A stretch of 64,000 nt of DNA from Marsupella aquatica (taxonomy: Eukaryota > Plantae > Marchantiophyta), in the NCBI GenBank assembly GCA_973895155.1, contig OZ316894.1, forward strand, positions 24,302,709 through 24,366,708, written 5' to 3'. A model generated the notes under the pieces. The model ran no database searches, was not told the DNA's origin, and saw nothing but the letters and a program-made list of their open reading frames with translations. Shown here piece by piece: positions 1 to 50,715 of this stretch. The first letter of the stretch is position 1. Each line of letters begins with the position of its first letter. A program made the position numbers and the translations under genes.

Positions 1-2183
1 CAACATATATAAATCAGGAAATTTCACTTAATTATTCTCAAAAGAGCATCAATGAGGAGGATCAGTCAGGAGACGTTCCCATCTTGATTGCATAACAATT
101 TAGCCTTAGTACAAAGCGCAGCAGCAATCTGGAAAACAAGAGCACTGAGAGAACAACAAGTGAACAACATTGAGGGAAAAGAGGTCTGATAGAGCATCTT
201 TAACAATGAGACCACTTCAGTTGATCCACCACAAAAGTGCCAAGCAATATTTAGGTGGGGAGGAGGAGCTAGCTTAGTAAGCAGCCCACAGATTTCTAAG
301 ATGACTGTCGGCAAACGAGGATGGAGAACCGGCTGAGACAGATAATCTATGGCAGTAGCTGGTGCAACTGGTTTAATTTATCAATCACATTTCTCAAAAT
401 GCTGTAAATAGTATCATGGGAGTGAAATTTGACTCAATCCCTCTGAAGTCTATCTGAGTTGTATAAGTCTGTGGGAGCATAATAAATATTCATGGTCATA
501 TATGATCTGTCCCCTTCCTTGCACCCCCAAACGCATATAAAAGCCTCATTCCCTCCCTCACTAGTCTCACCATTCCCTCCTCATTCTTGTCTCACCATAA
601 AGGGTGGAGCGGTGGAGCACTTGCCAATAAAAGGTTATGCACTCACCACCGTCCATTCTTGAACCTCCAAACTTTATATTGAGAGCTATGGGTAACCCTT
701 AGCTCTTTATAGCTAGGTGCACTGGTGGTTTAAGTGATGCCCCATAGTTACACCCTAGAGGCTTCATCTACACCTAGGCTTTCAATCCCAGATTACTCTA
801 AGATAAGGACTTTAAAAAAACTTTTTCCATTATTTTGCTTTTGAAGTGGGATTTTTTTCCATTGACTTAAATTTGTTTTTTGTTTAATATTATTTACGGA
901 CCCCATGAGAGGTCCCTTCCAAAATTCCTCACACCAGAGCGTGCCACATCAACAACGACCGCAACAAACAAGACTTGTCGGTTTTGTGAATTAAACTTAC
1001 AGTTTTCATTCGTGTTTACGTCAATTTGGGTGTAAATTTTGGGACACCATGCCATAAAAAGAAATGTAAAAATTTAGAAATGGAAAGAGCAAGAGGGTAA
1101 AACTGTCACTATGTAACCATTTTAGTTACGTATCTAATTTTAAAATTAAATTCAAAGTTTTGAAAAAAAAATCATATAATAAAGAATGACTAATAGTTAA
1201 CTTGATAACTTCCTTGTTAACGAGTAACTAGCACAATCATGGAGTAAGATTTCCAGCCTTTTGCAATTCAGGCAAACTGCCATGGTCGGAACTTATGGTC
1301 GGAACTTGAACTCAATGAATTGAACAATTCATTTGATCAGACCCCTGGGCCCTTAGTGTTACTAATACAGGGAGGACGTGCGAACAATGCAAGGGTATTT
1401 TTAATGTAATGCAAACTAATTTTTATAACAGTTTTTAAAGTAGGCAACATCCCTCTATATACATTCACCACAATATTAGTAATAAGGCAAGAATCAAATA
1501 CATGTCACATAAATCTTATGCAAGGGTACCCAAAATGCCAAGTACACGCGTCACTATATGGTTGACACACATGTCATCACTTCATTTGCACACATGTCCA
1601 TATAGTAAATCAGATATTTAATTATTATCGTCTTAAGGCAAGTTTGGTTTCGTTGGTCCCCTTATGGTGGAACAAATGGGTTAAGGTAGACATGTTTACC
1701 CGCATGTTTAGGAGTTAAGTGGGGAGTTGAGTAAATTTTGGGCCAGGATCTTTGGCCCAACTTGGTTGGGAAACTGGGATTGATGGGGATCCATGGATCA
1801 ATCCCACATGGACGGACAAGATTACTTTTGAATTCCCTTGAATCAAATAGCCATGTATGAGGCCAGATATGTTTGTGTATTGAGGGAGGGGTCTTGAGCG
1901 CTCAAACAATGTTTGTTATAGTTGGTTCAGACTTTGAAGTATTATTCCTGGATTATACATATATAGTACTAATGAAACTAGAAGTTCAGAGGCACTTTTG
2001 CAAACACTAAGACAAAACTGCAGGTCTATGTGTAAACTATAGGAAGAACTCTAATTTTCTCTCATCCTAATTTTGTTTATCTATATAAAATATGTACCTT
2101 GAACATCGAGCATAACATACAAGTCCCCTATGAAAGATAAAGTTTTAACTATTTCAGTATGATATTTGTAATTCTAAAAATTC

Positions 2184-2199
2184 AAGGGTGTTTTCAATT
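2184..2199 (+). repeat. Left terminal inverted repeat (16 bp)
   Basis: AAGGGTGTTTTCAATT is the exact reverse complement of 12677-12692. Confidence 0.65.
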
Positions 2200-2477
2200 C
2201 CTTGAAAAACTCTATTATAATTTACAAAAGGATAAAATTTAATAGGAAAAGTTAATATTTTTACATTAACAAGGGGATTTTTTTGTGAACAAAAATATTA
2301 AGAAGGGGTACACGGGGGGTATCTGTTCTCAGGGGGGTTCACTTGATATAGTAAGAGTGAGGGCCCAGGGGATCAGACATTGATTTGGTTTCAAATGGAA
2401 TTGCCACAAATTGACTATTATCACTATTAGTCTTTTTATCACAATGCATGTAGCAAAAAGGCCTGATTTTGACAACT

Positions 2478-2522
2478 GCTCGGCCGTTCATTTGACGATT
2501 TTACATGCTCGGCCGTTCATTT
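2478..2522 (+). repeat. Subterminal 17-bp direct repeat x2
   Basis: TGCTCGGCCGTTCATTT at ~2478 and ~2506. Confidence 0.7.
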
Positions 2523-3256
2523 CTCTTTCGGACAAATACAGACCGTTTGGTGCTCCCTGATCATTGTTTACCAAGCTGCGAAACTACCCATACAAACCTA
2601 CATTCGAGTATCAAATGCACGTTTGATACGATTTTGAACTTGAAATAGGAAAATTGATACCGGTATCGCCTTCTCTATTCCGGTTAGACTTCTTGAGAGG
2701 TGTTTTTCTTTTGCTAGGCCATTCGCGAATGCCCTCGACGATACGCATATCGCAAATTGGATTGCGGACCCAACTTTTGTGTTAGTGGGAAACTTCTCAC
2801 ACCGATAGCGCCAAAATAATTGAAGATTCACACAGGAAGCTTAGTCTTTTTGCGAGAAGGTACGGGTACCATACTAGGTTTTGATGTTATTTCCATTATA
2901 GTGGCCATTTGTTGACATTGATCGGTGGTTTCTTAAACAGCTTGTAGAGGCACGAGAAGCATCCATCACTTTGAAGGTATGGTTACCACACGATCAATGT
3001 CGAGCAAACTTATTGGCAAGCCGTATTCATAGGTTGTTTAAGTTCTGGAACATGTATATTTATGAAACCAAGTTATGTAGCCATATGATTTCCAGCTTCA
3101 ATATGTTTACATGTTTGTGGTAAATTCTAGGGTTTGGAGAGAGCGAGACAATACCAGTATCACGGTTGTCATTCGGAAGGCCTACTCCAAAGAGACTGGT
3201 ATCATAGATATCATTAAGTATATTAATCAATTGCACCTACCCTCTAATCCGTAACA

Positions 3257-6200
3257 ATGGTGCCCAGTCAGAGGAGTGGTTCTCAAGATGATGAGAGTTT
3301 GATGAGTAGCCTCTGCTCTTCAATCTGGCAGAACGAGGAGATTTGTGATGAGCAGAAATTCCTGAAGAAGAACTGGCATGTGCGCGACGCTATCGGAATG
3401 TTTCTTGATAAGGAAATTGACAACCTTTTTTGTGGGTTTGAATCAAGAAGTCTGAGAAGGTTACCCCTCGGGTTACCCTTTCATTCGGTCCGGTTGTAGC
3501 GTTTGCAGTTTGTGACTACATGAAGGGAAGAGGGAAAGATAAAGAAGCCAAGCAGACTTTAAATTTCTTGACTATGACGGGGATGAAGCCGTTCACTTCT
3601 ATTATTCTTGATGTGGATTATTTTGACTTGAAGGTGATGGAAGCACACCCAGAGGATGTAGTTTTCAAGGAGTTGACAGATATTTTCTCTTGCAATTTAA
3701 AATTGACCCCTGAATGGTTTGAGAAATATGTTGCAGATTGTGACAAAGTACTGCTGCCACAAGTTCAGGCAGAATAGTACAAGAAGATTTTTGGACAGGA
3801 TTTCAAAAAGACACTAAAATTGAAAGTCAAGAGAAAGATTGCAGAGGTAAGTGGGAGCTTGACAGCACAGGATCAGGTTGGCGAAGATCATGAGGGAGGA
3901 TCAACCGGTGGAACAAAAGTAGGAAGTAAAAGTAGAACGGGTGGTCAGCGAAAAGAGACTCGCCAAGGACCGAGTAAGAAAGTGGTGAGTGGAGGTGCAT
4001 CAGGGAGCCACCCGAGAAGGAAGCAATCCGGTTCTCGTTTGAGTAAAGATGATGACACCATTGGGGAAGTGGAAACCAAACATTTGAGTGACGTCCAAAA
4101 AGGGAGAGACACTGCCGCCGCATCCGAGGAGCTTTAGAAGTTGAAATGTTTCGACAAGACATTGTAAGTAATGTTTAATCGTTGAATAGTCCAAAGAAAG
4201 TGGTTTGATGATATTTTGGATTTCAGTACCAATTGCAACATCCCTGTGAGCTTGTGTTACCTCTTTTGAACAAGCGTTATGCGTGACTTTTGAGACAATC
4301 AGGTCACTTGTGTTTTGCTATGAAATTTCTGATACCGGTATCGGTTGAAACATCCCCATTATTGTTTATAAACCTTTTGTTCCTCTCATGCTTGGAAACC
4401 TCATCCTAAGATGTTTTCTGTGTAGGATGGAGACGATCTTACCGCACTTTGGTGGATTGTTTACATGTGGAGAATATCAAATCTCTTTTGATCCAAAATC
4501 CAACAAATTTTAGCGCACCGTTTGTTCTTCATGTGGACCCAAGTGATTGCCCAACAGTCAAGGATTGGGACCAATCTAAGTATATGAACTGGAAGTATAG
4601 AGTGACTGGCGGGACTCATGGTGCGCGGGCGAAGAATGAGTTGTTTGAACAATATGGGAAAAAGATCTTTGGAGAAGTTGAAGCATGGGTTTACGCTGGC
4701 CTCTCAAAACCTGAGTTTCGAAAATTGGGTTGGCAGCATAACATAGACCAGGAGTACAGGAAGACAATGACAAATACTGATAAACTCAGGGCCTGTCATA
4801 ATTTGTATTTGGAGTTCATGCAAATGAAGAAAAAAGATCTTCGATTTGCTTGTTGCGAGGAGTGTGGCCTTGTGTACAATCCGAAGGAGAGAGAGAGAGT
4901 GTTTCAAAATATGATCCAATGTTTCAAATTGCATTTCGGCACGGAGAAATATGGGATCTTACAGATACAATTTTGACAATGTGGTCAAAGTTTGAGGTTC
5001 TTGGACAGGTGAAGGCAAAGTCTCCTGTAAAGCCTGCTCCTCCCAAGGGCAAAGGGAAATCAAGAGCAAGAGCAAAACCTGTATCCTGAAAGTTGCACAA
5101 ACTAGCAGGGGATATCAACTTCTTTCCATTCAGAGCACTTCAAGGTCTTGCAAATGAGGAGCAGGAAAAGCGGTTATTGAGGAGGGTAATATCCAAAACT
5201 ATAAGTCTTGATCAGATGCACCGTGAAGGAGAGCTCTTGAAAAAGCTCTTCAAGATAAGAAATTTGTTTCTCCAAATATCCGGTCAGCCAGATTGGGCTA
5301 CATGTTGATTGTTATTTCCTGAAGAAACTCAGGTTTCAGTTCTGACGACGTGGACGGAGAAGTTGAGCGACCAGGTAAAGGAGTTTTTCATTACTTATAT
5401 TTTTTTATATAGCTTGAAAGAGAGGAGCGATACCTGTATCTGCTTCTCCATTGAATTATTTGTTATTTTCTTTCATTGTGGGTTCTAGAGTGGAAACCAA
5501 TACGGATGTCATTTGTTTTTTAGATTGAAAAAGGAGATACTGGTATCTACTTCTCCATTGTGGGGTCCTGATTGAATCCCACTACCGGTATCATTTTTTG
5601 GAGTTTGAAAGAGAGTAGTGATACTGGTATCTGCTTCTTCATTGACTTTTGTGAAGCCTTGCAGCTCAAAGCATACTCCAAAAGGAAAGTGATACCTGTG
5701 GAGGAGACCGAGGTTCAGCCGGCAAAGCAGATCGAACTCCCGGCTAAAGACATTCCACATTCTTTCCGGAATTTTGTACTTGGAGCGATTGAGAAATACA
5801 ACCGGCAACAGAACATCGCGTCTGTTGAGATTGTTTCAACAGATTACACCTGGAAGAACGCTGACGGGGATTCTTTCCCTTATTCATTGCATCTTGGAGA
5901 TGTTCATCGTTTGGAGGGGTTCTTGAAACCCCAAAATTATACTCTCGCTGTTGCTAGCTGATGTACCATATGGTTTTAATGCCCCCGGGTCTAAGTTTGA
6001 TGAAGTTCCTTTTTCAGAACAGGATGTCGTCAAGATGATCACCTCTTTTTTCAAGGTGACAACAACAAAGATTTGGAGATTCGCTGTGATGCATTCTCTT
6101 CAACAAGCTAACATGGTGATGCATGCACTTGAAAAAGTTTGCAACTGTGGAGTGGAAGCTGGAATATGGCAAAAGACAAATATTCATCAACATCCATCTG

Positions 6201-6772
6201 GCCCAAGATTAGCTTGGGCCTTTGAGAATTGGACCATTGGGTACTACTCGGAGGAAGGAATTCGAAAAAAAGATATGTACAATTTTGAGCCAACGGATTC
6301 AAGGGTTAACATCATCAGTATCCCTTGTGTCACAACAAAAGCCCTAACACCACTGGGGTTTATTGTTAACCCTTATCAGAAGCCAGTTGGAGTGTCTGAT
6401 TGGTTTGTGAATTATTTTAGCAACAAGGGAGATTGGGTGGCAGACTTGTGCTGCAGGACAGGGGCAACTTTGGTCGCGGCCCTTTTGAATTCTCGCAACG
6501 GATGCGCGGTGGATAAGAGCTCTACTCAAATTGAGTATGTCAAAAGTCGAATCATGACTTTGGACTCTGCTTGGAGTCTATTTGACAAAGCCTCAATTGT
6601 CGGAGATGGAGAAAGCTCTAAGGAGGTTCAACCTCCCATTGGCGGTGAGCTAGGTTCGATTGGAACAGATGCTTATGTAAATGAGTCGCCAAGGGAAGAT
6701 GAAACTGAAAATGAAGAGCAGCTTCCGCAGACGCCCAACGATGAGGATCTTAATGAAATGTTGTTAGATTAG
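3257..6772 (+). pseudogene. Disrupted multi-exon gene: ParB/Srx-like domain fused to a beta-class N6-adenine/N4-cytosine DNA methyltransferase
   Basis: ORF pieces 3257-4137, 4449-5374 and 5665-6772 join across premature stops and frameshifts and a phase-0 GT-AG intron at 5375-5664. ParB-like signature: YRVTGGTHGARAK..VYAGL..LGWQHN. MTase motifs in beta order: LHLGDV..AVADVPYG (motif IV, DPPY-like), NPYQKP, GDWVADLCC(R)TGATLVAA..R..AVD (motif I). A 4-bp duplication at ~5954 shifts the frame just before DVPY. The true start may lie upstream. Confidence 0.8.
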
Positions 6773-7307
6773 TTAAATAAAATATTATGTAATATGCCAC
6801 TCTTAGTTGTCATTATTAGAGCTACATGGGATTTGTACTTAGTAAATATTAAATCTGATACCAGTATCTGGAATATCATTTGTAGCTTTATATTAGTATG
6901 TACACTTTCTAGATGATAAATACTACTTGCGATACCAGTATTGGAAATCATATTCCAAACGGAGAAGGAATCAAATAGAACCCAAACTGCACTTTGGATG
7001 TCTATTCTAAACTGATGTGGGACTGTTTTCTGTCGAGTGAAATAGTGCGACACTTTCTATGCAACTCAAACTTCAGTAGTCCATCAAGAAAATTCAGGGT
7101 GATTACTAAATGTGAACTTGTGTAAATTGTCTAGACAACTTCTGTGCAATGGATCATTATATCCAAAGCACAGAGGTTGTCAAGACAGTCTACATGAGTT
7201 ATGTTTACATTTTTACAAGAGGGCAGTTGGTTTGTTAGTCAACAACCATCAAACTGATGTGTGCAAGGCACAAAACAACAAAAAAATACAATGGAAACTA
7301 TAAAATT

Positions 7308-7359
7308 GATGATGTTTGTACCTCAGATGTTTTTAAACGTCTGAGGTAACTTCATCATC
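7308..7359. other. Interrupted palindrome/hairpin between the convergent 3' ends of the two element genes
   Basis: TACCTCAGATGTTT-tt-AAACGTCTGAGGTA (14-bp stem, 1 mismatch), flanked by GATGATG/CATCATC. Confidence 0.6.
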
Positions 7360-7660
7360 GATGCTATTCAGAGTATCATTATGCGATGCAATACTATGAA
7401 TATGACCCCATTTTGGTTTGCTCTAAACAGCTCCGAAAGCATACCTTCTCGAGATTGCGAATGCAATATCCAGTCCATTAATTAATATTCGTGAAGGCAA
7501 GCTCTAATTTTGCTCGACGGAAATTTATTTTCACTATAAGGTATTGGTACACATTTGACACTAAAATACATTACCATTCAACAATATGTCCAAAAAAAGC
7601 CACTTCTTTATAATAAAATACTATTTACGATACCAATATCAAAAACCACATTTGTTACAA

Positions 7661-10600
7661 CTACAAAATTTCTTCAAGCTGTACATCTAGCATGGCTGCC
7701 TGAATAATTCTTTGTGTTTTTGCTGGCAAGGTGTTGTTTGCATTCAAAGAAAAATTGTAGGCATAAATTGCAGTTTCAGAAAGGCAGATCTCTCCATGCA
7801 GAGCTTTGTTTGATGATGCTTCCTTCTCAGGATAATATTTTCCTTCAATTGCTGACAGCTCCTCAGAATCCATTGTGTACCATATGATACCAATATTGTC
7901 AGGCACTTCATCAACCTTGGTCAGTATTTTGGTAACCTTTGCCATCCAAAAAGGCCTCCCATTTTGATCTGCATGGGCTGCAACACAAATCATTGAATAT
8001 TTGTTATTTACTTCAAGATCTTTAAAATCTCCTACCTCGGAAATCCTCTTCCGAGCTCCAGAGTACATGGCCTTCTCTGGACCTGCAATTTTCTCAATGA
8101 GATCAGGTTCAATTGTAGGCGCCCTCCCGTCCATCACTAGGGTCTCTCGATGCTCGTTTGATTTTGGCCAAACGCAATCAAACATCCACTATGCTGGCTT
8201 TAGGTGATTTTGGATGACATCTTTCTGTTTGTCAAAGAAATTTAGCCACCACAACTTATCCTTGTCGTCAAAATAATTGAATCCCTCCTCAATCGCTTTC
8301 CAATATTTCTCCAATGTTTCTCTTTCTACTTCACCAGTAGCATCTGCTCCGTCCCCTCCATTGGTGCTTTTCAACGCCATTTGAGGTGCAACCCAGAATG
8401 TGGTTGTTGGGATGTAATTCACAAACTCCACGGGATCACCCCAACTTGGGGTTGTTGAAATGTGTTTGGCATGAAACAAACCTTTTGGAATTCCATTTTC
8501 CCCAATCACACGTTGTATTCGGAATTGCTTTTGAAAACTGATCTGATGAAGTGGTTGCAAAACATGCCCGGTTGCCCCAGTCCTGTTGGGTTGATCTTTC
8601 TCGCTCACATACTTCAGAAAATCCGCTGTTTCTTCTACAAATATTGTCTCAGCTTTGGGATTGTACGAACCCTGTATAATGTCAACAAGAGTATCCACTC
8701 GGAAAGCTTTGCGTTTGTTCAGTTTTGAGAAAACTTTGCTGAACATTTGGTCTATCTGATCATGTGTGTGGCCAACCAGCAGAAATCCAACCTTGATCTT
8801 CTGGAAAACCCCCAACTCTACAAGCATATTTAAGTAAGCAAACAAGAATTTATTCTTGTTCTCCCGAGCAGTGTTATCCAACTGTAAATATAGCACCGGA
8901 GGTAGCACTCCCTCCCAAGTATTCAAAATATTCTGAATAACATGGATTGTAAGGTTAGAGTCATTGTGAATATTAGGGTAATTGAGATATACCTTAGCCT
9001 TCAACTGACCATTGAATATCAAACTGCCCACCACATGAACAAAAATAAAATATTTCTCATCCATGTTTTTTGGACATCTGGTGAAGTGCGGTAACTCCGT
9101 CTTCTTTTGGTCCATCCCATCAATACATATCCCCAAGTACTTTTTTGGGTGCTTGTAACATTTATTCCGATGCTTTGCTAATTTCTCCCGCCCGACTCCT
9201 TGCGCTGTATGATACTTTTTCAACAACATAGCATACTTACCTGAGCAATATCAAATTGGTAACAAAGTTATTATAAAAACATTATTGCAACACTAGACTG
9301 CTGGTCTATTGGCATTTTGAGGTGTGTGGCAAAAACCATTTTCCAATGCCAAGACCTATAAATTTATAGGTTTTGGTATTCTAAGCTCAATAACACATCC
9401 AATTCCAATTCATATGGATAAAACAAAAACTTACTTTTCTCTGATTCGAGCGTAGCTTTGTCACGAAGAGCTTTGAATTCTGTGCATGGACCGCAAGTCA
9501 AAAAATGACTTCTTTTTGGAATACGAACTCAAGCAAAATGTTGCTTCCATGTCCGACAGAACCAAGAATATGTAACCCCTTGTTCTTGGCGCAACAGAGT
9601 TTCAGTTCGGAAGGCATCAAAGACTTCAGCTTTCGTCCAATTGTCAGGCAAATGAAAATTTTCCTTATTGGGAAGTCTTTCAACGTTACTCCTAAAAAAA
9701 TCATTTAACCACTCTATTAAAGTAAGATGAGTGGAGGATTTTTCTCTACAAAATACATTGTTCTCGATACGAGAGAACATATTTTGGGTTATCCTTTGAA
9801 GGCGATTATTTCCAATTGAAAATAATTTCTTAAAACCTTCTCGACAAAAAGAGTTTCCAGACACACTGTACCTGCATGACCCACTCTGGTTATTCCTAAC
9901 GCATCCTCTTAGAAGTATATTCTTCTCCCATGGGTCAGGCCAAAATAATAGGTACGCTCTTTCGTTACTTCAAGTAAACCGAAAGTCCTCAAACACATAT
10001 TGTCACAACATGGATACTTGAACACTTCTTTCATTTTTCTCCTCTTTAAATTCTCACTTGTAACAGTGTCTTTCTTGGCTATCCTATCCCTATGTTTCTT
10101 ACTAGGGACTTTTAGTTTCACCCTATCCTGAAATTCCCTTGTTGAATCATCGCTTCCACGGTCTTCACAAACCTCTTCGATGACGTCCTCATTGACAGTG
10201 TTTGGCTCACTGAAAAGGTGGCTATGCTACTCTGTGGCTCATCGCCTCCATCATCAGCTTCTAAACATTATGACACAACTTGTGCAATTACTTTAATAGA
10301 CTCTCTATCGTGTACAGAGACATCTTCCAGACTTTCTTCATCACTGGAATCATCAGAAGATTCAGAACATACAATTGGAGTTCTGGGTTCTCTAAACTTG
10401 ACTCAAACTATTGCATTACGAGAAATACCTACCCTAGGTAACCCATACCTTCTAACTGGAATCTTGAAACAGTACCCGTCTGAACTGGCGTTGTCTGTGG
10501 ACTATTCTCTTTAGGACCATTATCCTCATTTGGACAAGATTCAAAAAGTCTCTGCATACACTTTCCTCGAAGCATTCGAGATAGAGCGGAGATAGGACTT

Positions 10601-11115
10601 TGGAGTCTCGTTTGGAGTCCCATGAAAGCCACCCTATCAGTGGATGTCCGCCCCAACACTGGCAATGCTTGAGGCGATACGCGTATCGCCTTTGGTATTC
10701 GCGACCCCGATGGCTCTAAAAAAATCCTCCTTTGCACCTGAGAGCTAGTGCTCACTGAATTTCTTGGATCCAATCCTGACGCTGATACCCGTATCGTTCT
10801 TCGGATTCCTTCTCCATATCCGGGAATGGATGGTTTATAACAGCATCGAGCTCCCAAACCTAGTATTGAAATTTTCTCTATTCCTGGTCGAGGAACACTC
10901 AGTAGACATCGTTTATCTGGCTTACTAGGGGAGACATAATAAGACCCTGTCTCTGGCGCAGAACCACCATCTGAGTCTGAACTGGAATCCAAGAGTTTGG
11001 GTATGACACGGTGGGACAGGGAAAGCTTCTTCAAGATATGAGAAGGTAGAAATCTTGTTCGAACATTAGGAGATGACTCCACAGAACTCTCTTGGGAATC
11101 AGATGTATGAGACAT
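7661..11115 (-). pseudogene. Disrupted Sola/DUF7869-like DDD transposase with Cys/His-rich N-terminal part and C-terminal accessory domain
   Basis: ORF pieces 11115-10429, 10121-9909, 9864-9529, 9229-8189 and 8185-7661, with an intron at 9434-9241. Motifs: CCDNMC, CREGFKKLFSIG, WFCRTWK..TCGPC, ICIDGMDQKKT, LYLQLDNTARENKN, FLLVGHTHDQIDQMFS (three candidate catalytic Asp). An in-frame TAG at 8189-8191 separates the core from the C-terminal domain. Confidence 0.8.
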
Positions 11116-11280
11116 GATGAATCAAAAACTCTATGGCAGTTCACATTCGTCTCTTGAACCTATTGTTGCAAAGCTTGTCTCATGAACTTAGGGAAGAGAG
11201 ATAGGGATCAGAGAGATCTAGACAGCGAAAATGACTCCCGACCTCTAATGGAATGAAGTCCGATAACTTGAGTGTCCGCG

Positions 11281-11375
11281 CTTTTATAGTCACGGCGGCG
11301 GAAGATTTACGTGGCAATTTTTGATTGGCTCCCGCTAAATGACAAAATAGTCCAAAGCCGGGCCTCCATAATTGG
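11281..11375 (-). promoter_or_regulatory. Putative core promoter of the transposase (TATA plus CCAAT boxes)
   Basis: TATAAAAG on the minus strand at 11288-11281 and CCAAT at 11328-11324 and 11375-11371, ~170-260 bp upstream of ATG 11115. Confidence 0.45.
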
Positions 11376-11424
11376 TCCCTATATCTGAGTTTGGAATTGA
11401 TGTTTGAATTTGAGCAACATTTAA

Positions 11425-12175
11425 ATTAAGGTGGTCAAGAAGGTGAATGGCAATACCAGTATCGCTGTTTGCATTGGAGTCATTTAAATGTGATCTTGGA
11501 GGATGACAAATACCGGTATTGTTATGTTTATTGGATTGGCATTAAAGGTTGTTGGGAGAAAAAGCTATACCGGTAGCGCGGTCTGTATTGGAGTGGTGTT
11601 TACAGGTGGTCAAGGAGGAAGAGAGATATCGGTATCGCGGTCTGTATTGGAGTGGTGTTTATAGGTGGTCAAAGAGGAAGAGAGATACCGGTATCGTGGT
11701 CTGTATTGGAGTGGTGTTTACAGGTGGTCAAGGAGGAAGAGAGATACCCGTATCGCGGTCTGTATTGGAGTGGTATTTATAGGTGGTCAAGGAGGAAGAG
11801 AGATACCCGTATCGTGGTCTGTATTGGAGTGGTGTTTACAGGTGGTCAAGGAGGAAGAGAGATACCGGTATCGCGGTCTGTATTGGAGTGGTGTTTACAG
11901 GTGGTCAAGGAGGAAGAGAGATACCGGTATCGCGGTCTGTATTGGAGTGGTGTTTACAGGTGGTCAAGGAGGAAGAGAGATACCGATATCGCGATCTGTA
12001 TTGGAGTGGTGTTTACAGGTGGTCAAGGAGGAGGAGCGATACCAGTATCGCGGTCTGTATTGGAGTGGTGTTTATAGGTGGTCAAGGAGGTAGAGCGATA
12101 CCAGTATCGCAGACTGTATTTGAGTGAGGATTACAAGTGAACCGGGAGGAAGAGCGACACCGGTTCGCTAGAGGA
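11425..12175. repeat. 59-bp tandem array (~9-10 near-identical plus ~3 degenerate units), each with the GATACCGGTATC palindrome
   Basis: Unit GTATTGGAGTGGTGTTTACAGGTGGTCAAGGAGGAAGAGAGATACCGGTATCGCGGTCT; CTGTATTGG recurs at 11583, 11642, 11701, 11760, 11819, 11878, 11937, 11996 and 12055. Confidence 0.95.
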
Positions 12176-12676
12176 AGGACTAAGAAATGAGTCCGGAACA
12201 ATTACAAATGGACATTGCCATTTGTATTCTTGTTTCAACGTTGACAATGGAATTTTGCAAACTACGTGGTGAACTGTGAGGTAACTTCAGTTGACTGTGT
12301 GGTGAACTTTGATGTAAAAAAATATTAGAATGTGGTAAATATTTCAAAACCTTCATTTTATGATAGAAACAGCAAACAAATTTCAATGGAATTCGAGGAG
12401 CGATACCGGTATCGGAATAGTTTTGTTTTCTTGATCTGTTTTCCTTGTAACCAAAAGTTCTATTTTCAAAATCTAACAAAAATGGAAATATTTCTGGGTT
12501 CTATTGTCGCAATGAAAATGTTTGAAGTTAGTGAGGATATTGAAATTCACAATTTGGGATGAAGCCATCATTCCTCGCGAAGTTGGGAACGATATGAATT
12601 AGTCGGTTTTGCAAAAATCATTGATTTTGCGAGAAATGTGTCGCGCACATTGTGAAAATCGGCAAAAATCGATCGA

Positions 12677-12692
12677 AATTGAAAACACCCTT
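12677..12692 (-). repeat. Right terminal inverted repeat (16 bp)
   Basis: AATTGAAAACACCCTT is the exact reverse complement of 2184-2199. Confidence 0.65.
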
Positions 12693-14050
12693 CTCCATTA
12701 GGCGTCACACTTCTCGTTTGGTCCGTCACCATGTTCCTACTTGTTCAACACAACATGACTACCAGCTTCCCTTCCTAATCAGACTTCTCTCTTCTCAAAG
12801 CTAGCTTAATTTGCCCTTCTCCATTTGGTGAATAGCTCGGGGAATAGTTGCGTCAAGGTCATAAGGCTATTAACCTCTAATTCAAAACTAGCCAAAGTCA
12901 GATTTCAGTGAAATCTCTAGAATTTCCAATTATTTGAAAGTACATTGATAAATCTTCTACAAATTAACAGGGCTCAACTACTAGAAAGGTTAGGGTTCGT
13001 TGTTGAGAAAAGCAATCTTCTCAATTGAACTTGAGAAACTAAGGAGTTTTCTCAACTCAAAGTGCCCATGGCACTTTAGTGGTCGAATATAGTGCCATCC
13101 AATGCCCAAAATCAACTAACTAAAAAAAAACTGAGCCTTGGGTTTATTAATGTTCTAAAATTAGCTAAAATATCTCATATATCTTCAGTGTTTAATGCCT
13201 GCTAGCAGAGCATTATGAACCATATTAGCCTCTCAAAACTCAAGCTAAAAGCACTCATTTTTTTTGGTCATTATGAAGACTATTGCAAAATCACATTTGG
13301 ATGAGGTAATTTATCTTATATTTTCATTAAAATTTGTAAAACTATCTCAGCATAATAAAGTGTGTTACTAGATCATTTTGGACCATAATAGACTCCCATA
13401 ACTTGAGCTAAAGCTAATATCACATATATTATGTTTACTCAAACAAGGCCTAAAAAATGTAACTAGGGGGTCCACTAACTAATTCTCCTTTTTTAAAAAT
13501 CCTGTTGGAGGGGAAAAAGGGTGGGGAGAGGGAGATATTGAGGGATGGAAGGAGAGACTGAGAGAAAAAGGAGCTTCAGGACTGTGCGGGGAGAGGAAAA
13601 AGGAAAGAAGAAGAAGGAAAAAGGATAAAGGTCCACCATCCATATTATAAGGATGGAGTATGCTTGGGCTGGGCCATTTCTTTGCCTTGCTTACATTCCC
13701 TCCCCTCACTTGGATTCCTTTACCTTGTCAATTTTTCCTTTTATGTGGGGTTTCACAACTTTATTCTATAAATTAAAAAAGAAAAAACATGCACAAAAAT
13801 ATAGTCTTGTAAATAGTATATATTAGGAAGTTACTCTGCCAGCCACAATTTGTAAACCCGAGCTCTATGTATATACACATATATAGCCATTAGAACACGG
13901 GAAACATGTCTCACACCAATCAGAAATTGCTCGTTGATTGAATCAATTGCCAACGTCCACAATTCACTAAACTAGGTACTGGGAGTCTCACATCAGAAAT
14001 TGGGCTTCGGAAAAGTGGCGCAGTAATTTCCTGGCCATTGACGCATCTAC

Positions 14051-15058
14051 TCACAAATCTATCAGAAATATCTGAGTAGACCCATTTTCGAATCTCCCTA
14101 AAGAACATTGTACAGTCTCCAACACAATATCTTTCTCTTCAGTACCGAACTTGAGTGTTTGGAGAAGACAAGCTCCCTCGGACGTCCCGTGGGTCTCTCC
14201 ATTGCGTTTGAAATGGCTCACAGTCAAGAGCTCATTGCCAACCAGTATAGTGTGACCGCCGGATCCGATATCCAGATCATCGGGTATATCAGAAAACGAA
14301 CTTCCATCCCATAAACCCACGAATGACTGCAAAGTAGTCCATGAATTTTCAGCAACATTATATCGATCAATGCCATCACGTGTCAGTCGATGGAAGCATT
14401 CGTTTACCACAAACAAGTCGTCGTTAATCAGATTCCCTTTCCCGCCGTCAGCCTCATCCCAAGTGAACCATTTTCCGCCCTCCTTTAGATCATATACCAA
14501 TATTGTAGATTTACAAACATCGACGTTTTTGTCGACATGATCCAAGTCTTCCGAAGCTCGACCACCGTAGATATAGAATTGTTCTCCCAGTGCTGCAACC
14601 TTATGATTCACTCGAGGTTGAGGCATGGCCGGTAAAGTGGACCAGCTATTGACCTTGGGATCATACACCTCACATTCCAAAACAGGTTTGCCACAATTAT
14701 AGCCCCCGAACACATAAAGTTTTCCATGCAGAGCACCAACGCCAAAATGTAGTCTCGGGAATCTCATGTTGCTACACTTTCGCCAGTTGCCCGCTTCGCT
14801 CGCCAGATCGAACGAATAAACTTCTTGGGTGGCAAGGCCCCTGTCATGGTGCTCCAGTCCTCCCAAGATATAAATTGCACGATTGACTGATATCATTTGG
14901 CAATGTGAACGGATTCCTCTGGCAACAGGGAGCGGAGGCAGGCTGCAAAACTGTTTTTCTTTGTAGAGACCAAGCGCATGGGCAGCTCCGTAACGAATAT
15001 TTCCAGGAATTATGGAATGCACTCCAACAACAATAGCTGGTGAGTGAGAGGTCGACAT
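14051..15058 (-). CDS. Kelch-repeat beta-propeller protein (F-box/kelch-like, no obvious F-box), intronless, 335 aa
   Basis: Repeated Kelch motifs IYILGG..VYSFD..W, LYVFGG..EVYDP..W, FYIYGG..VYD..W. Confidence 0.85.
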   Translation of the reverse strand: MSTSHSPAIVVGVHSIIPGNIRYGAAHALGLYKEKQFCSLPPLPVARGIRSHCQMISVNRAIYILGGLEHHDRGLATQEVYSFDLASEAGNWRKCSNMRFPRLHFGVGALHGKLYVFGGYNCGKPVLECEVYDPKVNSWSTLPAMPQPRVNHKVAALGEQFYIYGGRASEDLDHVDKNVDVCKSTILVYDLKEGGKWFTWDEADGGKGNLINDDLFVVNECFHRLTRDGIDRYNVAENSWTTLQSFVGLWDGSSFSDIPDDLDIGSGGHTILVGNELLTVSHFKRNGETHGTSEGACLLQTLKFGTEEKDIVLETVQCSLGRFENGSTQIFLIDL

Positions 15059-15125
15059 CTTCTACACAAATTATAACGAGCTGAAGTTAAAAAAACAATG
15101 ATGGAGTATATTCGTCAATATTTGT

Positions 15126-18059: not shown

Positions 18060-19451
18060 TCATTCGATCTTCAAATCCTTGTTGTATGACATATCTACGG
18101 TGTGATAGTAATGCGACTTGATCGCTGCGACATAGCCTGCAACAGCCTTATAATCAACAGCGTACTGTTCACACAAGCGCGCCACAATCGGTTGCAGCTT
18201 CGGGAGATGACAATGGTTCACAGTGGGAAACAAATGATGCACACTCTGATAGTTCAACCCGCCGCTAAAGATAAAGCAGAACCTGCTCCTCACCCCAAAG
18301 TCCTGAGCGGTGACCACCTGGTGTTTAAACCAATCCTTGTCTTCCGCGTGCGCAGCAGTCGGAGTAAGGTGGTTCATCTGCGTGTTCATCATGAACAAGA
18401 ACGAGGTAGTAGGATTCGGTAAAATAGAGAAAGCGAGGCACCGTGTCCAGGAGTCAAAAACAAAAAATGGCCAAGTGTGAAGGACTAACAAAGTGGCAAC
18501 GCGCCCGAAGGCATGCAGAGCAAGCCTCTTTCTGCTGACCGGCTGCATTGGGACACACTCATTGTACAAATTAGAGATAATCATCCAGGGGTCTTCAGTC
18601 ATAGCCCAGTACTCGGCCGCGATAGACCACCAGAAGACTATGAATCCAATGTGCCTTTGCTTCTCGTGGGACGGTGTCCACTTTACGCTCTTGTGCTCTC
18701 TTTTCAACCAGTAGTGGTGTACCAAATCAGGATCCCGGCCAGCAATATTTGGGTAGCTGTGATGTCCAATATTGTGCTGATGGTACCAAGTGAAGGGGCT
18801 AGCGAAATTAGGCAATAAGTAAGGTACGAGAGCATTCACTGTCCAGTTAGGGTGCAGAGAAAAGTGCGTGGCGTCATGGAATGTGTTCACTCCCGTGACC
18901 CAGAGGCATAGCGGGAACAGCAGCAGAGAAACCCATTCACCACGAACAAAACTAATGACTGAATAGGAAAAAATAACGGCCAGGACGGCTATTTCCAACC
19001 ACCGTGACGGTGTTGCTTTCGTTGCTTCAAGAATTGAAATACCTCTCCGTTTGGCTTCACCCTCGAAGTACTCCTTCACTTGGGACCGCAGAGCTTCCCC
19101 GAACTCACTAGTCCAGATGAACTGATGTTCGGGAATTCCATGCTGCTCTTCAAGAGTAAAGTAAGCTTTCGATTGACACTCGCTCAGCTCATACTTTTGC
19201 AGAAGAGCGTCAAGAGTCGTGCGAGCAGTGAATGGATGATGACTCTCGAACAGCACCGTCCCATCTCTACTTGCTGCTAATCCCAAAGCCACCGGTCCCC
19301 CAGGATGCAGCTTCTTGAAATCTGTGAGGTCATACCATTTACTATGGATCTTTGTGACAAGCCTGTCTTTCGGCAACGTATTCTCTAGGCTCCCCGTTTG
19401 CCCAACTGTACTCACATGCCTGTCTTTCGGGACCGCTGCAGCTGTATCCAT
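18060..19451 (-). CDS. Intronless cytochrome b5-fused front-end fatty acid desaturase (~463 aa)
   Basis: HPGG heme motif; His boxes HDATH, HNIGHH and QSVHHLFP; hydrophobic segments; first ATG at 19451 (the ORF track start at 19466 is GTG). Confidence 0.9.
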   Translation of the reverse strand: MDTAAAVPKDRHVSTVGQTGSLENTLPKDRLVTKIHSKWYDLTDFKKLHPGGPVALGLAASRDGTVLFESHHPFTARTTLDALLQKYELSECQSKAYFTLEEQHGIPEHQFIWTSEFGEALRSQVKEYFEGEAKRRGISILEATKATPSRWLEIAVLAVIFSYSVISFVRGEWVSLLLFPLCLWVTGVNTFHDATHFSLHPNWTVNALVPYLLPNFASPFTWYHQHNIGHHSYPNIAGRDPDLVHHYWLKREHKSVKWTPSHEKQRHIGFIVFWWSIAAEYWAMTEDPWMIISNLYNECVPMQPVSRKRLALHAFGRVATLLVLHTWPFFVFDSWTRCLAFSILPNPTTSFLFMMNTQMNHLTPTAAHAEDKDWFKHQVVTAQDFGVRSRFCFIFSGGLNYQSVHHLFPTVNHCHLPKLQPIVARLCEQYAVDYKAVAGYVAAIKSHYYHTVDMSYNKDLKIE

Positions 19452-22400
19452 TGAGGAAAGAATCACGATTGACCTTAGAAGCTGACTGTCACTAACCCAC
19501 AGATGATTCAGACTAGCGCAGACCTTGTAATGCTTGAGGGTTCAAAGTTACGTTCCGTCCTCTAGTATATTCGATCTCGCCGCCGGTCCGCTGCGACACA
19601 CTAGCAGATGGAAGATCCAAGGTATACTAACACGGCGTCATGTCGTGAGACCCAGGCATCCGAATTGGGAGTATTCCAATGCTGTCCTCCGGCTTCCAAT
19701 TGACAGACCACGCTACTCTAAAACAACACAGCAGCATAGTTGAGGCAAAACTGCAGACTCTCCTCTAGAGTGAGTCTTCATCGTGCACCTCATTCACTCT
19801 TATACCAAACACTGAAGGCAACCAGGATGATGATGATCGATGACGTTACATGAGAGTCGATCTCACAGTTTTGCTGTCGAGGTTGAGGGCAGCCGGATCA
19901 CATGCCACCCGCCTCAATTACTGTTAGTCACTGACGCTATTTTCAAAATGTTGAGCCACACGCGAAATATTGTGAGTCACTGTAATTATGTATAGGTTAA
20001 GGCACACTATCAATCACACTAAAATGAGTGGGGATCATAATACAAAGACAACAGGAGGAATGATGTCCGATTTTAAAATATACTAACACGTCGTGACTAT
20101 GGATCATGGCCAGCGCCAAAATGATAGACCACTGTGATGGATGAAAAATTTAAACGAAGCCCAAAATTGACACGCAATTATCCTCCGAAAATCTTGGGCG
20201 AGAATGATTATTTAACATACAGAAACGACTTGATATACGCAATTAGTATATTCCTGATTAAAAAAAGTGTTCGGGACAGAAAATAGCCGGATGATAATTG
20301 CACATCAAAAAGTAGTTATAAAGTAGCTATACTGTACTAAGTTCATGGCAAGCGCCGACAGATTCGATGAATTTTCTTTATATAAACCCGATTGGTCTTT
20401 GATATTAATAGTGTTGTTGCTTTTAAGATCCGGCTACTCCCTTGTTGATGTGCAGTCACCACAACCCATGTCCCATACAATAGTCGTCACACTAATCACG
20501 GTGGAGTGTAGCTTCCTGACCATCATATTAATCGATCTACTGTTTGTTGCAACTGCTCGATCTACCAGTCCCTTTCGGCATGCTCGATCAGTCCATGCCA
20601 ACGTACTGCTTCCTTTACTAGAAGTGAGATACTTCGTACACAATGTTTTTAAGATTAGAGCAATTAAAGTATTTCCCTTGATTTCCATGCTCCGTCTGCT
20701 GATTATTAAATGAAATCTGAAATGTGGATGTCTCATTAATCAATTAATCTGAGATATATTCAATGATTGAGATGAACGGTCGGATCCTCTGGTAGGTCGA
20801 TGCAGGACGAATGTCACTTCCGGGTCTTAAATTTCCTGCCCGTCTCGATCCTAGTTTTGAGAGCATCGGCGTCCCAATGTCCAACTCTCTCCCCACAACG
20901 ACCTTCGGCGGTCACTAATTAACGCCTCGATTGAGTCTGCAAAGACTTGTTTTAGTTTATGGCTTTCAACACCTGTCCAACTATCTGCACATATAAACGG
21001 ACACCACCCTATGGGCCCGCCTATGGGTAGGGTATCTGGGGAAGGGGTTCAAGGCAAACCCATCCGAAAGGACCGAAACAAATCCAAGGGCAGGCACGCT
21101 TGAAAAACAGGAAGAGAATTGAAGGCAACACCAAACGCAGCGAAGCAGGTGAGCAAGTTGGCACTGTAGGACTTGAGGTAAATGTTGTAAAATAAGTGGA
21201 TAGCTGGGCCATACCAACCCGACAGTGAGCAGAGGACAGATGCGAAGAGCCCGAAACAAGGCCTCACCAAGTCGTATCATATCTCTTCGTGTTCGCAAAA
21301 CTGATTTTCAAGGCTTCAGGACTAGAACGAGCAAGAATTAACTAAGGGTATCTTTTACAGGAAGCCCGGGCCTATTGCTTCCCCGATTGCTCCCTTTAAT
21401 TCCCTCTAAGATTATGATCTGAAGGTTGGTTTTGCAAGAAGTTGGGGCCCCATTCAGTTTTGTTTTTTAGAGTACTGATTGTACATGGCAGGTAGTGGGC
21501 CTAAGGAAATGCTATGTGAAGTGCTTAATTTGTCTAGAATTTTATATCAACCCCAGAAGTGGTGCAAACATTTCCAAACTCCAGTTCCTTGCATTAGACG
21601 CCAAGCATTTTCAGACATTGGTTCATTCATTCACAAGATTTGAATTTGTGTAACTTTGTTACAAAAGATTTCTGGGCTTGAATCTATCTTCAGAACACTC
21701 AAGAAGCTAGTCTCGGATTGAAGGTGGCACTCTCACCGTTGATAGTCGTAACTGGTCTGGGTAGCACTATTTGTGTAGCTCAACATTCTACTTGGTATGC
21801 TTCATTTAAAGTTACATTTTAGCTGTCAGTTACATTTTCTTGTTTAGCATGATTTGGAGCATAACATTGGCCCGCAGCAAAATCAACTGAAACAATAAAG
21901 GGTGACACATTTCAAAGACAACCAGAGACATTGCGGGCATTTGCATCATGAGCCAGATTTGGACAAGTGACAACACGAGCAGAGATTGCAAATAGCACAG
22001 CAGTGGCAGGGCATGACAATTGGGAATTACTCTGCATCATGTAATTGTAACCCAAAATTGTTTACAACAAAACCCATCCTAATGAGTGACTGTTATTCTC
22101 TGCTGGGCTAATTCGCAGATAAGACAGCTGTAAATGGCAATTAGAATCACGGGTGAAGTACTCATTGATAGTGCGGACATCTACAATACCATGGGAGCTG
22201 GCACCAAAACAAGGCACTTGGGCACGTAAAATAATAGGACTGCCTTTCCCGAAATCTAGCCGAAGACAATGCTAATCATAAAATCTGGTAAGTACAGTTG
22301 AGTACAGTAGTTGAGAAGCTATGAACAATATGCAAATTACGGCCAATAAATTAATGGGAAAGAAACAGCTCGTCCTGCTCTGCCCCCCAGGTGCGTGTGC

Positions 22401-42461: not shown

Positions 42462-42917
42462 CTAACCTGGGGGGTTGGTGTCACTGGTAACCGTTGTCGG
42501 ACCATTTGTGTTCCACGCTTTAAAAAAATTATATGTCTGGTGCTCATTGTCCCAGATGTACATGCCTCCACTCTCTGCCCTCCAGACACAGTTGCCACAC
42601 GGCAGAGGCATGTCCCACCAATGCTCCCGATCCCAGACGGTGAAAGACTGCCAATACTTATAATTTGGGCCCCATTGGAACCTGCACCAGAACACAGTGT
42701 TCATGATGATATTCTCGTGAAACTCAAAACGGTAGTCCTGGTTGATTTGTAGCTGCTGCCAATGCAGGTCGTCATCACCAGACTTGCAATGCACCCACAA
42801 TGGCTCCGTAAGCGAATTTATGATGTCCACTGAAGATTTGCCCGCTTCTGCAGAGGGCACCAGAGTGAATGTGATTGCGAGGACTGCAGCTGCAAACAGG
42901 ACTCCAACCATCTTCAT
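42462..42917 (-). CDS. Secreted S-protein homologue (plant self-incompatibility S1/SPH family), ~151 aa
   Basis: Signal peptide, then VDIINSL..LWVHCKSGDDDL..YRFEF..TVFWCRFQW..C..CVWRA..GMY pattern; single exon; TATA-like CTATAAATAT at 43120-43111. Confidence 0.9.
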   Translation of the reverse strand: MKMVGVLFAAAVLAITFTLVPSAEAGKSSVDIINSLTEPLWVHCKSGDDDLHWQQLQINQDYRFEFHENIIMNTVFWCRFQWGPNYKYWQSFTVWDREHWWDMPLPCGNCVWRAESGGMYIWDNEHQTYNFFKAWNTNGPTTVTSDTNPPG

Positions 42918-44265
42918 CACTGCGAGTGATCTTCACAAAGTAATTAAGGTTTCCACACGGGGGAGCGAAAAAAAGTAGGCAAAGAGTAAGCAAAACTGAA
43001 TGATACAAAGTGAGGCTTCAGGCTAAGAAACAGAATGCAGATATTGGTTTGGAAACCATGTAGAAAACAGACAAAGGATGGATTGAATGAAGAATACAAC
43101 GGGAGATTACATATTTATAGAAAAGTGCAGAAGTCCTGAGACCGCCACCCCGAGCCCCTACCATTGCTCTCTAACGTAAGCATGGACGGTACTCATTTTG
43201 TCGAACTCTTCCGGTACTGGTGCGGTATTATTTTGAAATTTCACATCCATGACAGATGCGATGGGAAATTGACCTCAAGCAGCCCATTGATTGAAGAACT
43301 TAACTATTCTCCTTGACTTTCTTCCCTTTCTTTTGACGTTTCTATGGAATCAACACCGGCATATGGAATATGCTTGCAAAGAAACGCTACGCCACTAGTA
43401 GATTAGATTGATTTCTCAACTGTCAATTCAGCAGCCAGGACTATCACACCTTCTACACAATCACGCCCTCTGATATGGCTTTGTAATACTGGAGGACAGC
43501 ATTGTTCACCGTACCGCTTACGAGTGTTATCCCGGAGGTCTTGAGATATCCTTGGCATCAAACGAGAGAATGGAATGTGCTCAGGCATCTTCCACCATAA
43601 TATTCTTAGAACGTCTAAATCAAACAATTTCTATGGCATGTCAGTTTCATCTTGAGTAGACAACGAGCACCACAATCAAATTATGACACACAGCTGGAAT
43701 AGACCACCGAAGGTAATCTATGTCGTGAGTGACAAACATGAGTGTTTTGGGGGTCGTGGTAGTTCTTCGTCATGGTGATGTCCTCATTTTTCTCATGTAT
43801 ATGCAGATCGTATTTTCTGACCAGACCGTTTTGGGGGATTCTTGATCAGATTGAGCAGAGTCATTTGGGAACCTGGACACTATTGGTATTAAGATTGATT
43901 ATTGTTAGCTGGAGCTGGAGCGATGAAGCTGAATGATGATATACGAGCTGGGACGAGCTGCCGCAGGCAATCATTCCGAAAGCTGGGTTTAGGATTCCTG
44001 AGTTGAGCTTGGCAATGCGGAACCATGATTGTAGTATGATCGATCGTATATCAGCTTAGGTCGTGGTGAGATCCAGCGATGCTCATGGCAATACTTATGT
44101 GTGAGGATAAATTGCAGTTAGTAGTGCTCCGTTCTCAATTGATCAGGTGGAGGCAAAGGGCCATCAACGATCAAAGCGCTTGTTCTTACTAGCCTTTCTT
44201 AGTACAGTAGCCCTCCTTGAGCTGGTTCTTAATTTACCTATGATTTAAGCAATTCAGCTTTATCC

Positions 44266-48732: not shown

Positions 48733-49799
48733 CCAAAAGGCCAGAGTATATGGACTGGGAGAAATTTGCACAAAATTTGCCACTAAACAACCCCAATAAG
48801 TAGTACTTTCCTGCTCAAAAGGATTCCCATGTGGAGAATAATTAGACATTCCTTTTTAGAGTTTGGGTAAATTTTGTAGCAACCACTCAAAAGCAAGAAT
48901 AAATTATTATATATATCACAGTGCCAAGGGCAAAAAAAGTCAAACGGGGAACAGGATCCCAATGGCATTAAGTAGCCAATGAAGGGGAGGAAACAAGGGG
49001 AACGGCCCAAAGAAAAAGAAGCCAAGGGGTCCCCAACCAAAAGCCAATTAAGGAGCAAAAACAAAATTGTACCTAATGTACAAAGGAGCAATGAATAAAT
49101 TGGTTTTGGGTGACTTGGTACTTTGTGCTTCAATAGGGCTTATTCTTTTGCAAAGTGTCTTCTTCTCACTGCTTTTTCCTTTACAATGTTGGCCCCACTT
49201 CTATCCCTTGATGTCAGAATTCTAGTAGACAAGTGTTTAGTTTCTAAACTGTTGTGAATCATTCTTAGAAACTTATTGGCCTTCCATGTTTTTCTCACAA
49301 TACCATAAATTTAGGAAACAGAACTGATGTTTGTTTCTCACACCCCCTTGAATTTCATCAGACTCTTGGGAAGAGATAGTGCAGGGTCTAGGTATCCATA
49401 ATGTAACTTGAATGTAAGGATAAAAACAAACTATTCTAACAAAGGATGGGCAAGATTAACAAATAAATATAGACCTAAAGAGGGGGTCTCAAAAAAGAAA
49501 ATTGAAAACATTAAGAGGGGGCTATAAATAATTTAAAGTCCAAAATACAAAGTATCCACCTTGTCTAAAATAAAATGAAATAAAATACGTGTCAAAAATA
49601 AGACAAAATAAATTGAGTACAGTAGGCTCCTAAACACAAGGTAAGACCAGATAATAAGATGCTTTCCTAGTCATTCCTATTTCATAAAGTACATTAAAAT
49701 ACACAGACAAAGATCTCAAAGGGGGTTAATTATGAAAAGGTAATAATTCAAAATCTTGACCGGGTTCAATTACAAAAAAAGGAGATTTTATTCCTGTAC

Positions 49800-50715
49800 C
49801 TTTGACGCCCGATTCCCGTCCAAACGTAGCTTGGACGGTTGAGATCGTGGCCTCAGATTTATAGATGTGATTGGCAGTAGAATTGTCGAAAACGTGGGGC
49901 CATCCTCTGATCCCCAATTCCTGCCCAAACGTAGCTTGGACGGTTGAGATCATCGGACAGATTTATTATAGACGTGATTGGCAGCAGAATTGTCGAAGCG
50001 TGAGGTCATTCGTTGATCCGCAATTCCCGTCCAAATGTAGCTTGGACGGTCGAGATCATCGAAGCTGATTTATAGACGTGATTGGCAACATAATTGTCGA
50101 AGTGTGGGGCGATCCTTTGATCCCCAATTTCCCGTCCAAATGCAGCTTGGACGGTTAAGATCATCGAAAAGATTTATCGACGTGATTAGCAGCTCGAAAT
50201 GTGGGGCCATCCTTTGATGCCCGATTCCCGTCGAAATGTGGCTTGGACGGTCGAGATCATCCCAGCTAATTTATAGACGTGATTGGCAACAGAATTGTCG
50301 AAGCGTGGGGCCATCCTTTGATCCCCAATTCCCGTCGAAATGCAGCTTGGACAGTTGAGATCATCGAAACAGATTAATCGACGTGATTGGCAGCTCGAAA
50401 TGTGGGGGTATCCTTTGATCCCCGATTCCCGTCGAAATGTGGCTTGGACGGTCGAGATCATCGCAGCTGATTTATAGACGTGATTGGCAGCAGAATTGTC
50501 GAAGCGTGGGACCATCCTTTGATCCCCAATTCCCGTCGAAATGCAGCTTGGACGGTTGAGATCATCGAAACAGATTAATCGACGTGATTGGCAGCTCGAA
50601 ATGTGGGGCCATCCTTTGATGCCCGATTCCCGTCGAAATGTGGCTTGGACGGTCGAGATCATCGCAGCTGATTTATAGACGTGATTGACAGCAGAATTGT
50701 GGAAACGTGGGGCCT
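49800..50715. repeat. Tandem array of ~9 units of 96-106 bp, with a ~201-bp dimeric higher-order structure in the right half
   Basis: CTTGGAC(G/A)G at 49830, 49935, 50041, 50146, 50242, 50346, 50443, 50547 and 50644; most units carry GACGTGATTGG and GAGATCATCG. Confidence 0.95.

Follow-up and report, generated by a model that had tools for sequence, protein, structure and literature searches.

The 64,000-nucleotide stretch of Marsupella aquatica DNA analysed here (contig OZ316894.1, positions 24,302,709 to 24,366,708; hereafter the window) contains a decayed Sola-like DNA transposon of about 12.6 kb, whose best-fit ends, 892..13480, follow from loose contig ends. The element carries two genes arranged tail to tail: a DUF7869 transposase gene on the minus strand and, on the plus strand, an accessory gene of three predicted exons that couples a domain for DNA binding, ParB-like in type, to a beta-class amino-methyltransferase (methylase). 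This convergent arrangement, proposed in an earlier sequence-only reading of the window, is borne out by Pfam matches on opposite strands. Copies of one palindrome, GATAC-NN-GTATC, lie around and within the genes. Neither gene is intact in the window copy, a point absent from the earlier reading, and since neither protein can be made, this copy can at most be a target in trans.

The transposase gene extends over 7661..10226 of the minus strand according to its homology to relatives, with at least one predicted intron (9241-9434), and its 5' end may reach approximately 11120. The Pfam family DUF7869, which we take to be the equivalent of Sola, matches positions 8192-9250 of the minus strand (E 5.7e-47). 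A transposase of Mutator type, as in VANDAL elements, was considered and rejected, DUF7869 alone being matched. The candidate triad lies in the motifs IDGMD, QLDNT and GHTHDQID; among 13 aligned transposases D44 is present in at least 90%, and D125 and D167 in 13/13, and these three residues are presumably catalytic. Comparison of the transposase with PDB sequences gave no match. The window gene is interrupted by in-frame stops and frameshifts. The ratio of nonsynonymous to synonymous substitution rates (dN/dS) is 0.08 for the relatives L008 and L009, most remaining pairs being saturated. Between the two convergent stop codons lies a hairpin with a 33-nt inverted repeat (7300-7367).

Exons of the accessory gene were modelled by tblastn, with the open exons of relatives such as L004 and L007 as queries. 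Predicted exon 1 (3257..4163, plus strand; E 1e-25 and 2e-23 with exon 1 of L004 and L007) bears a frameshift and stops in the window; it encodes a conserved N-terminal domain whose fold was not recognised, followed by a low-complexity linker, and ends in a predicted splice donor. The N-terminal domain itself, of about 200 amino acids (3257-3860), has no Pfam match and yielded a weak Atlas lead to PWWP/Tudor-like domains (score 0.82); it could be a chromatin reader. Predicted exon 2 (4426..5374, plus strand) encodes, by homology and by the model of L007, a ParB/Srx-type domain and a ParB/Noc-like helical DNA-binding domain. Its start is apparently deleted in the window, where it also carries a frameshift and two stops, and the window fragments gave no Pfam match to a ParB-like domain. 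The intact exon 2 of L007, 45% identical to that of the window, was modelled at pLDDT 80 and aligns with Noc and ParB in each of its two domains (Foldseek E 9e-6 to 4e-4; VIA PadC Z 10.6, root-mean-square deviation (rmsd) 2.9, 99 aligned residues); Pfam HTH_ParB reaches E 8e-4 on L007, under its cut-off. The N-terminal part of the model of another relative, P0014 (pLDDT 80), matches PadC, KorB and pNOB8 ParB at Z 8.6-9.4. A ParB/Srx N-terminal domain followed by a helix-turn-helix (HTH) domain is thus found in the predicted models of both relatives, and the ParB-like domain claimed for the convergent gene is confirmed through the fold of a homologous exon, not through a Pfam scan of the window. 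For exon 2 an Atlas search suggested DUF3723 clusters of fungi (0.96), with recognition below threshold, and this was kept as a lead only. No match to a partner ParA ATPase appeared among the 14 window open reading frames (ORFs) scanned.

Predicted exon 3 (5665..6772, plus strand) encodes the methylase, with the motifs DVPY, NPYQKP and DLCCRTG in this order. A frameshift directly precedes the catalytic motif, and the S-adenosylmethionine (SAM) motif has R where the family has G. Pfam N6_N4_Mtase matches 5927-6769 of the plus strand (E 3.8e-5, under the curated cut-off), profiles match DpnA, RsrI and MboIIA (E 1e-15 to 1e-13), and the model of P0014 aligns with CcrM over 218 residues (Z 23.2, rmsd 2.8). 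Motif IV stands ahead of SAM motif I, the order of the beta class with its permuted Rossmann fold. Motif order, profiles and the CcrM-like fold of a relative together uphold the assignment of a beta-class amino-methylase. Among 167 proteins scanned, motif IV starts with D in 69/73 motif matches and with S in 2/73; at the (D/N/S)PP(Y/F) position all six aligned rows show the variant DVPY/DIPY. An S-first motif IV marks N4C enzymes in the literature available to us, so that N6-methyladenine (6mA) is a likelier product than N4-methylcytosine (4mC). The SPPY motif of Marchantia DN4MT1 and of N4CMT was not found here, and the catalytic motif, the only point compared, has D in place of S and so lends no support to a link with these enzymes. 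For the methylases of L005 and L006 dN/dS is 0.05, synonymous sites being saturated in 13 of the 15 pairs; the substitution rates argue strongly for purifying selection. A weak search for methylase homologues among longer proteins found none.

The palindrome occurs in 16 exact copies, all within 2656-12413, against 0.01 expected. At one mismatch there are 24 sites inside the element and 1 elsewhere in the window, and at two mismatches 31 and 13, respectively, the 51 kb of window outside the element serving as control; in four control tiles of 12.6 kb, no palindrome with 5-bp arms exceeds 2 copies. The earlier impression that the palindrome is confined to the element therefore stands for the window, with no exact copy and a single one-mismatch copy outside, while its count of about 25-28 becomes 16 exact sites, or 24 with one mismatch. 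These 24 sites lie upstream of the accessory gene (2656..3203; at 2656, 2740, 3150 and 3192), in its intron 1 (4331..4342) and intron 2 (5429..5631; at 5429, 5536 and 5620), between both stop codons (6857..7640; at 6857, 6931 and 7629) and in the transposase gene's 5' region (two sites in 10676..10795, in an intron or unaligned coding DNA). Upstream of the transposase a 59-bp tandem array (11426..12168) comprises 10.2 units with one palindrome each, preceded by degenerate units, and the last site follows at 12402..12413. In total, 10 of the 24 sites are in or beside this array, and the other 14 are dispersed in unrelated contexts. None falls in homology-defined coding DNA, which covers 38%, the array copies not being independent of one another.

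The same design recurs in relatives. A phmmer search returned 313 matches, and among 30 proteins looked up were relatives from Chara braunii, Riccia sorocarpa, Adiantum nelumboides and Ginkgo; judged by similarity, methylase relatives are multi-copy in Chara (at least 13), Riccia, a fern and Ginkgo. One annotated Chara braunii protein (P0005, CBR_g41648) contains two ParB-methylase units in tandem. A methylase tree of 43 rows, built without a bacterial outgroup, groups Chara with the land-plant rows (96/88) and does not allow a donor to be named. Among 47 metagenome loci, 36 are distant methylases without a transposase match and six are close relatives (63-66%) on plant-type contigs (L004-L009). 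The tail-to-tail transposase is reached in four of these six, the contigs of the remaining two stopping 300-360 bases past the methylase stop, and all six have palindromes at matching introns and spacers. The coding DNA defined by homology is avoided by the sites in five close loci as well as in the window. Five of the six (L004, L005, L006, L008 and L009) share the site variant AGCGA[G/T]AC-NN-GT[C/A]TCGCT, and L007 has 20 sites of the form CCGAT-CCAAAC-ATCGG, whose frame CGAT-N6-ATCG is also present in the window's motif. The GAG/GAT contrast between sites goes along with a His/Pro difference in the putative recognition helix, a correspondence confounded by kinship. In Riccia, 3/6 methylase genes lie within five locus tags of one of the 47 DUF7869 genes listed, a proximity with a probability of about 1e-4 under a uniform, and lenient, null. 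A scan with the transposase only found four loci, and both of those with long flanks, L055 (2182-14767) and L056 (3447-13443), also carry a ParB gene, here head to head with the transposase, and have palindrome arrays of their own 3' of both genes. Both genes and the palindromes are thus co-located in related copies, as the sequence-only reading expected; neither of the two contrary patterns it had named, separation of the genes and an equally frequent palindrome outside the family, was found, the palindrome's frequency being gauged against the window DNA outside the element. The viral contigs gave distant methylases only (3 loci each), with no transposase and no paired-palindrome match. The contigs of L055 and L056 are filed under bacterial metagenome-assembled genomes; they are probably eukaryotic contamination, because their DUF7869 and ParB genes are split by introns. 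Long ORFs at 14966-20591 of L056 resemble, by eye, what we take to be a Helitron replicase/helicase.

The extent of the element was derived from contigs of public sequencing runs. On the left, loose contig ends and low-agreement flanks occur before 890/894 (22-30 contigs per run); on the right, loose ends and varied flanks follow 13484 (26-35 contigs). One contig joins 1321 to 12911, and this joint, together with the many breaks with varied flanks at both ends, identifies the left and right arms as one family. From these contigs we infer the precise base at either end; in other full copies the coding interior and the terminal arms are presumably mobilised jointly. The read-defined ends are flanked by TATT (888-891) and AATT (13481-13484), a 3/4 match to a 4-bp duplication and near the AWWT duplication of 4 bp given for Sola1 in the accessible parts of the sources (PMC3845634, PMC10741241). 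The terminal repeat amounts to a short imperfect match around GGACCCC, insignificant alone and not above background, the Sola1 criterion being a terminal inverted repeat (TIR) of at least 11 bp. Contig depth in run X1 is about 65-75 inside the element and 23-26 on unique flanks, which hints at a few near-identical copies, depth as such giving no copy number.

These ends replace the boundaries 2184 and 12692 of the earlier reading, whose left 'TIR' is inside an unrelated, multi-copy, non-autonomous insertion of 1,028 bp (1343..2370). This nested insertion has a TIR of about 23 bp and a perfect 8-bp duplication; public-run contigs display empty-site joints (1319>2375, 1321>2371 and 1280>2371), continue across 2184 and include forms of the insertion with internal deletions. 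The 16-bp inverted match between 2184-2199 and 12677-12692 does exist, and 0/1000 shuffles reach 16, but it is not the TIR of the element: under a gapped null it is ordinary (score 32 against a median of 31), no target duplication accompanies the positions 2184/12692, and a search for inner TIRs near 2480/12735 found none. The co-occurrence expected of the claimed TIR in related copies fails with it. A 36-bp segment at 2445-2480 is common to 16-21 contigs per run, continuing on both sides with other, mutually similar sequence, a pattern that suggests sister families. Directly left of the transposon lies another repeated element (547-735) with loose ends at 650. Elsewhere the window contains a Kelch-repeat gene (14051-15061), a cytochrome b5 fatty-acid desaturase gene (18060-19541), an S1-family gene (42462-42932) and a tandem array of 104/201-bp units (49799-50714); a search of the window gave no Rfam match. 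The S1-family gene and the relatives of the element both point to a host among the non-flowering land plants.

Recognition of palindromic parS sites by ParB is established, and the ParB-type HTH dimer of the accessory protein would quite probably read the palindrome. The methylase would be active with a likelihood slightly above even, and its product would probably be 6mA rather than 4mC. By analogy with the effect of VANC on VANDAL elements, the outcome would be anti-silencing rather than self-repression, and turnover of tandem repeats would let the site arrays and the protein evolve together. Taken as a whole, there is about an even chance that an intact accessory protein binds the 14-18-bp palindromes of its own family, methylates nearby adenines and keeps the genes of the element expressed. 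The two-gene layout, the domain folds, the placement of the sites, their family-specific variants and the purifying selection are the observed parts of this proposal. A self-marking hypothesis of this kind, already in print as far as the accessible text of two algal papers goes (PMC12477816; bioRxiv 2025.02.11.637652), is plausible here. A fuller version, which we consider unlikely, would have a ParB clamp load on the family palindrome in streptophyte Sola elements since before land plants, spread along the element and deposit 6mA against silencing; from one family to the next, the site and the HTH would change in step. If this is true, non-flowering plants own a transposon-borne, sequence-addressed adenine methylation system.

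Several observations weigh against self-marking by the accessory protein. The CTP-binding arginine patch of ParB, which we take to be GxxRxxA, corresponds, with the register set by eye, to a segment GG(N/T/G)H(G/S/T)(A/R)(R/E)A; since the patch is altered (it reads GNHGARA), CTP-driven spreading is doubtful. A single metagenome data set is the source of all six close relatives, whose hosts are therefore not independent. In L009, two of the four sites fall in the coding mask, ORF coordinates placing one past the stop and one in an intron equivalent. The distant plant-like contigs L010, L011, L018, L019 and L026, all short, contain neither transposase nor motif, and no listed transposase lies near three of the six methylases of Riccia, locus tags not being distances. 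The methylase motifs of plants depart from the canonical form (DVPY/DIPY/DFPY; DLCCGTG). The methylase of L055 and L056 is degenerate, with motif IV not recognisable, and since these loci keep the ParB domain and palindromes, marking appears dispensable in some lineages.

The last two points lend weight to the view that the ParB-HTH part alone works on the palindromes, by insulating, looping or repressing, with the methylase as a weak or dead scaffold or a reader. The red-algal PAG3, which combines the ParB-and-array design with a different enzyme in the portion of the preprint at hand (bioRxiv 2025.02.11.637652), is consistent with it. The plant families, however, retain DxPY, NPYQKP and GxG (the last intact in 5/6 and 4/6 rows, counting the window) under strong purifying selection, and we find this view rather unlikely. 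It is improbable that the palindromes are sites of the transposase, for self-activation or synapsis, with the accessory protein acting elsewhere or without sequence specificity. Transposases can activate their own copies sequence-specifically, according to the accessible part of one preprint (bioRxiv 10.64898/2026.08.24.746577), and the densest array lies upstream of the transposase; yet the terminal arms common to many other insertions (451, 110 and 746 bp) hold none of the 24 sites, the introns of the accessory gene are filled with them, and a palindrome of 14-18 bp is what a ParB-type HTH would naturally read. The placement of the sites around and within the genes, and their absence from the shared arms, speak for a role in expression rather than cutting and disfavour the transpososome licensing suggested earlier. 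Only marginally less probable is a methylase that writes 4mC or acts chiefly as a self-repressor limiting copy number: the beta class includes both activities, the fold of P0014 also matches N4CMT and PvuII (Z 19.4 and 19.8), and the Ectocarpus paper allows 4mC or 6mA where its text is accessible (PMC12477816), but the S-first motifs typical of N4C enzymes are confined to the two matches noted above. Neutral by-products of tandem duplication or conversion, beside a methylase gene as passive cargo, would suit a dead window copy with 10 of its sites in one array, but this explanation is very improbable and largely refuted by the 14 dispersed sites in unrelated contexts, the control tiles, the wholesale motif replacement in L007, the purifying selection on the cargo, and the recurrence of the design in distant elements.

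The proposed binding and marking by the accessory protein is directly testable, because plant families offer open exons with different putative cognate sites (AGCGAGAC-NN-GTCTCGCT in L006 against CCGAT-CCAAAC-ATCGG in L007). The value of the plant families lies in their land-plant range, retained catalytic motif and natural site variants; they could be an origin of 6mA in non-flowering plants, and a site-addressed methylase is a possible yield.

The design itself is known from Ectocarpus, and ParB with inverted-repeat arrays from red algae; as papers on Ectocarpus and Bostrychia already describe it, the window element is a further case of it and its extension to land plants. So far the ParB-methylase design has been a remark in algal genome papers. 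To our knowledge, finding and modifying copies of itself has been proven for VANDAL/VANC alone. Sola1-1_Ec32 of Ectocarpus, compared by description only, is a giant Sola-type element with a 4-bp duplication, in which a gene for a ParB-like part plus an N4/N6 methylase lies on the other strand from the transposase, and its authors propose self-binding and self-marking for this two-gene Sola1 design; among known proteins, a Sola1 transposase of Physcomitrella matches it best (PMC12477816). It belongs to a brown alga, measures 21.5 kb and has a 282-bp TIR, with no mention of palindrome arrays in the text accessible to us, whereas the window element, from a land-plant lineage, has 12.6 kb, a very short terminal match and family-specific sites. 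The Plavaka accessory genes PAG2/PAG3 of Bostrychia share a ParB-like accessory protein, whose proposed role is to bind the element that encodes it and to modify it, tandem inverted-repeat arrays adjoining the gene, and an N6-adenine methylase in the cassette; in the available text they differ by an EnSpm/Plavaka transposase, a ParB fused to a 2-oxoglutarate (2OG) oxygenase, and a methylase fused to SET in a separate gene (bioRxiv 10.1101/2025.02.11.637652). Supplements of the Ectocarpus and Bostrychia papers may already include arrays or plant homologues. The accessible part of Iyer et al. 2015 (PMC4738411) notes ParB-HTH methylase fusions for chlorophytes and chytrids, with few enzymes of this kind from land plants, and we found no description of land-plant ParB-methylase transposons in openly readable literature. 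Bacterial ParB/Noc proteins, with their parS or Noc-binding sites (NBS), resemble the system in domain fold and in palindromic sites of 14-18 bp, and CcrM, M.BceJIV, MboIIA and M1.HpyAVI in the fold of the methylase domain. Unlike these, it has no ParA match, an altered arginine patch, and an intron-bearing eukaryotic fusion on a transposon, and the accessory protein is at most ParB-like in its working. DN4MT1 and N4CMT are likewise eukaryotic beta-class amino-methylases, and in the descriptions available they are host genes, DN4MT1 with a TSPPY motif and 4mC activity, in contrast to the DxPY motif, ParB fusion and transposon-borne location here. Arabidopsis VANDAL/VANC is similar in having an accessory protein and short motifs, specific to each family, that occupy introns, spacers and tandem repeats and co-evolve with the protein, and differs, as far as its accessible text describes, in being a Mutator-type element with non-palindromic motifs of 8-9 nt and experimentally proven removal of 5-methylcytosine (5mC) (PMC5735166). 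Here too, non-coding DNA and tandem repeats carry family-specific motifs, and what is new is the land-plant breadth of the design together with family-specific sites like those of VANDAL/VANC anti-silencing.

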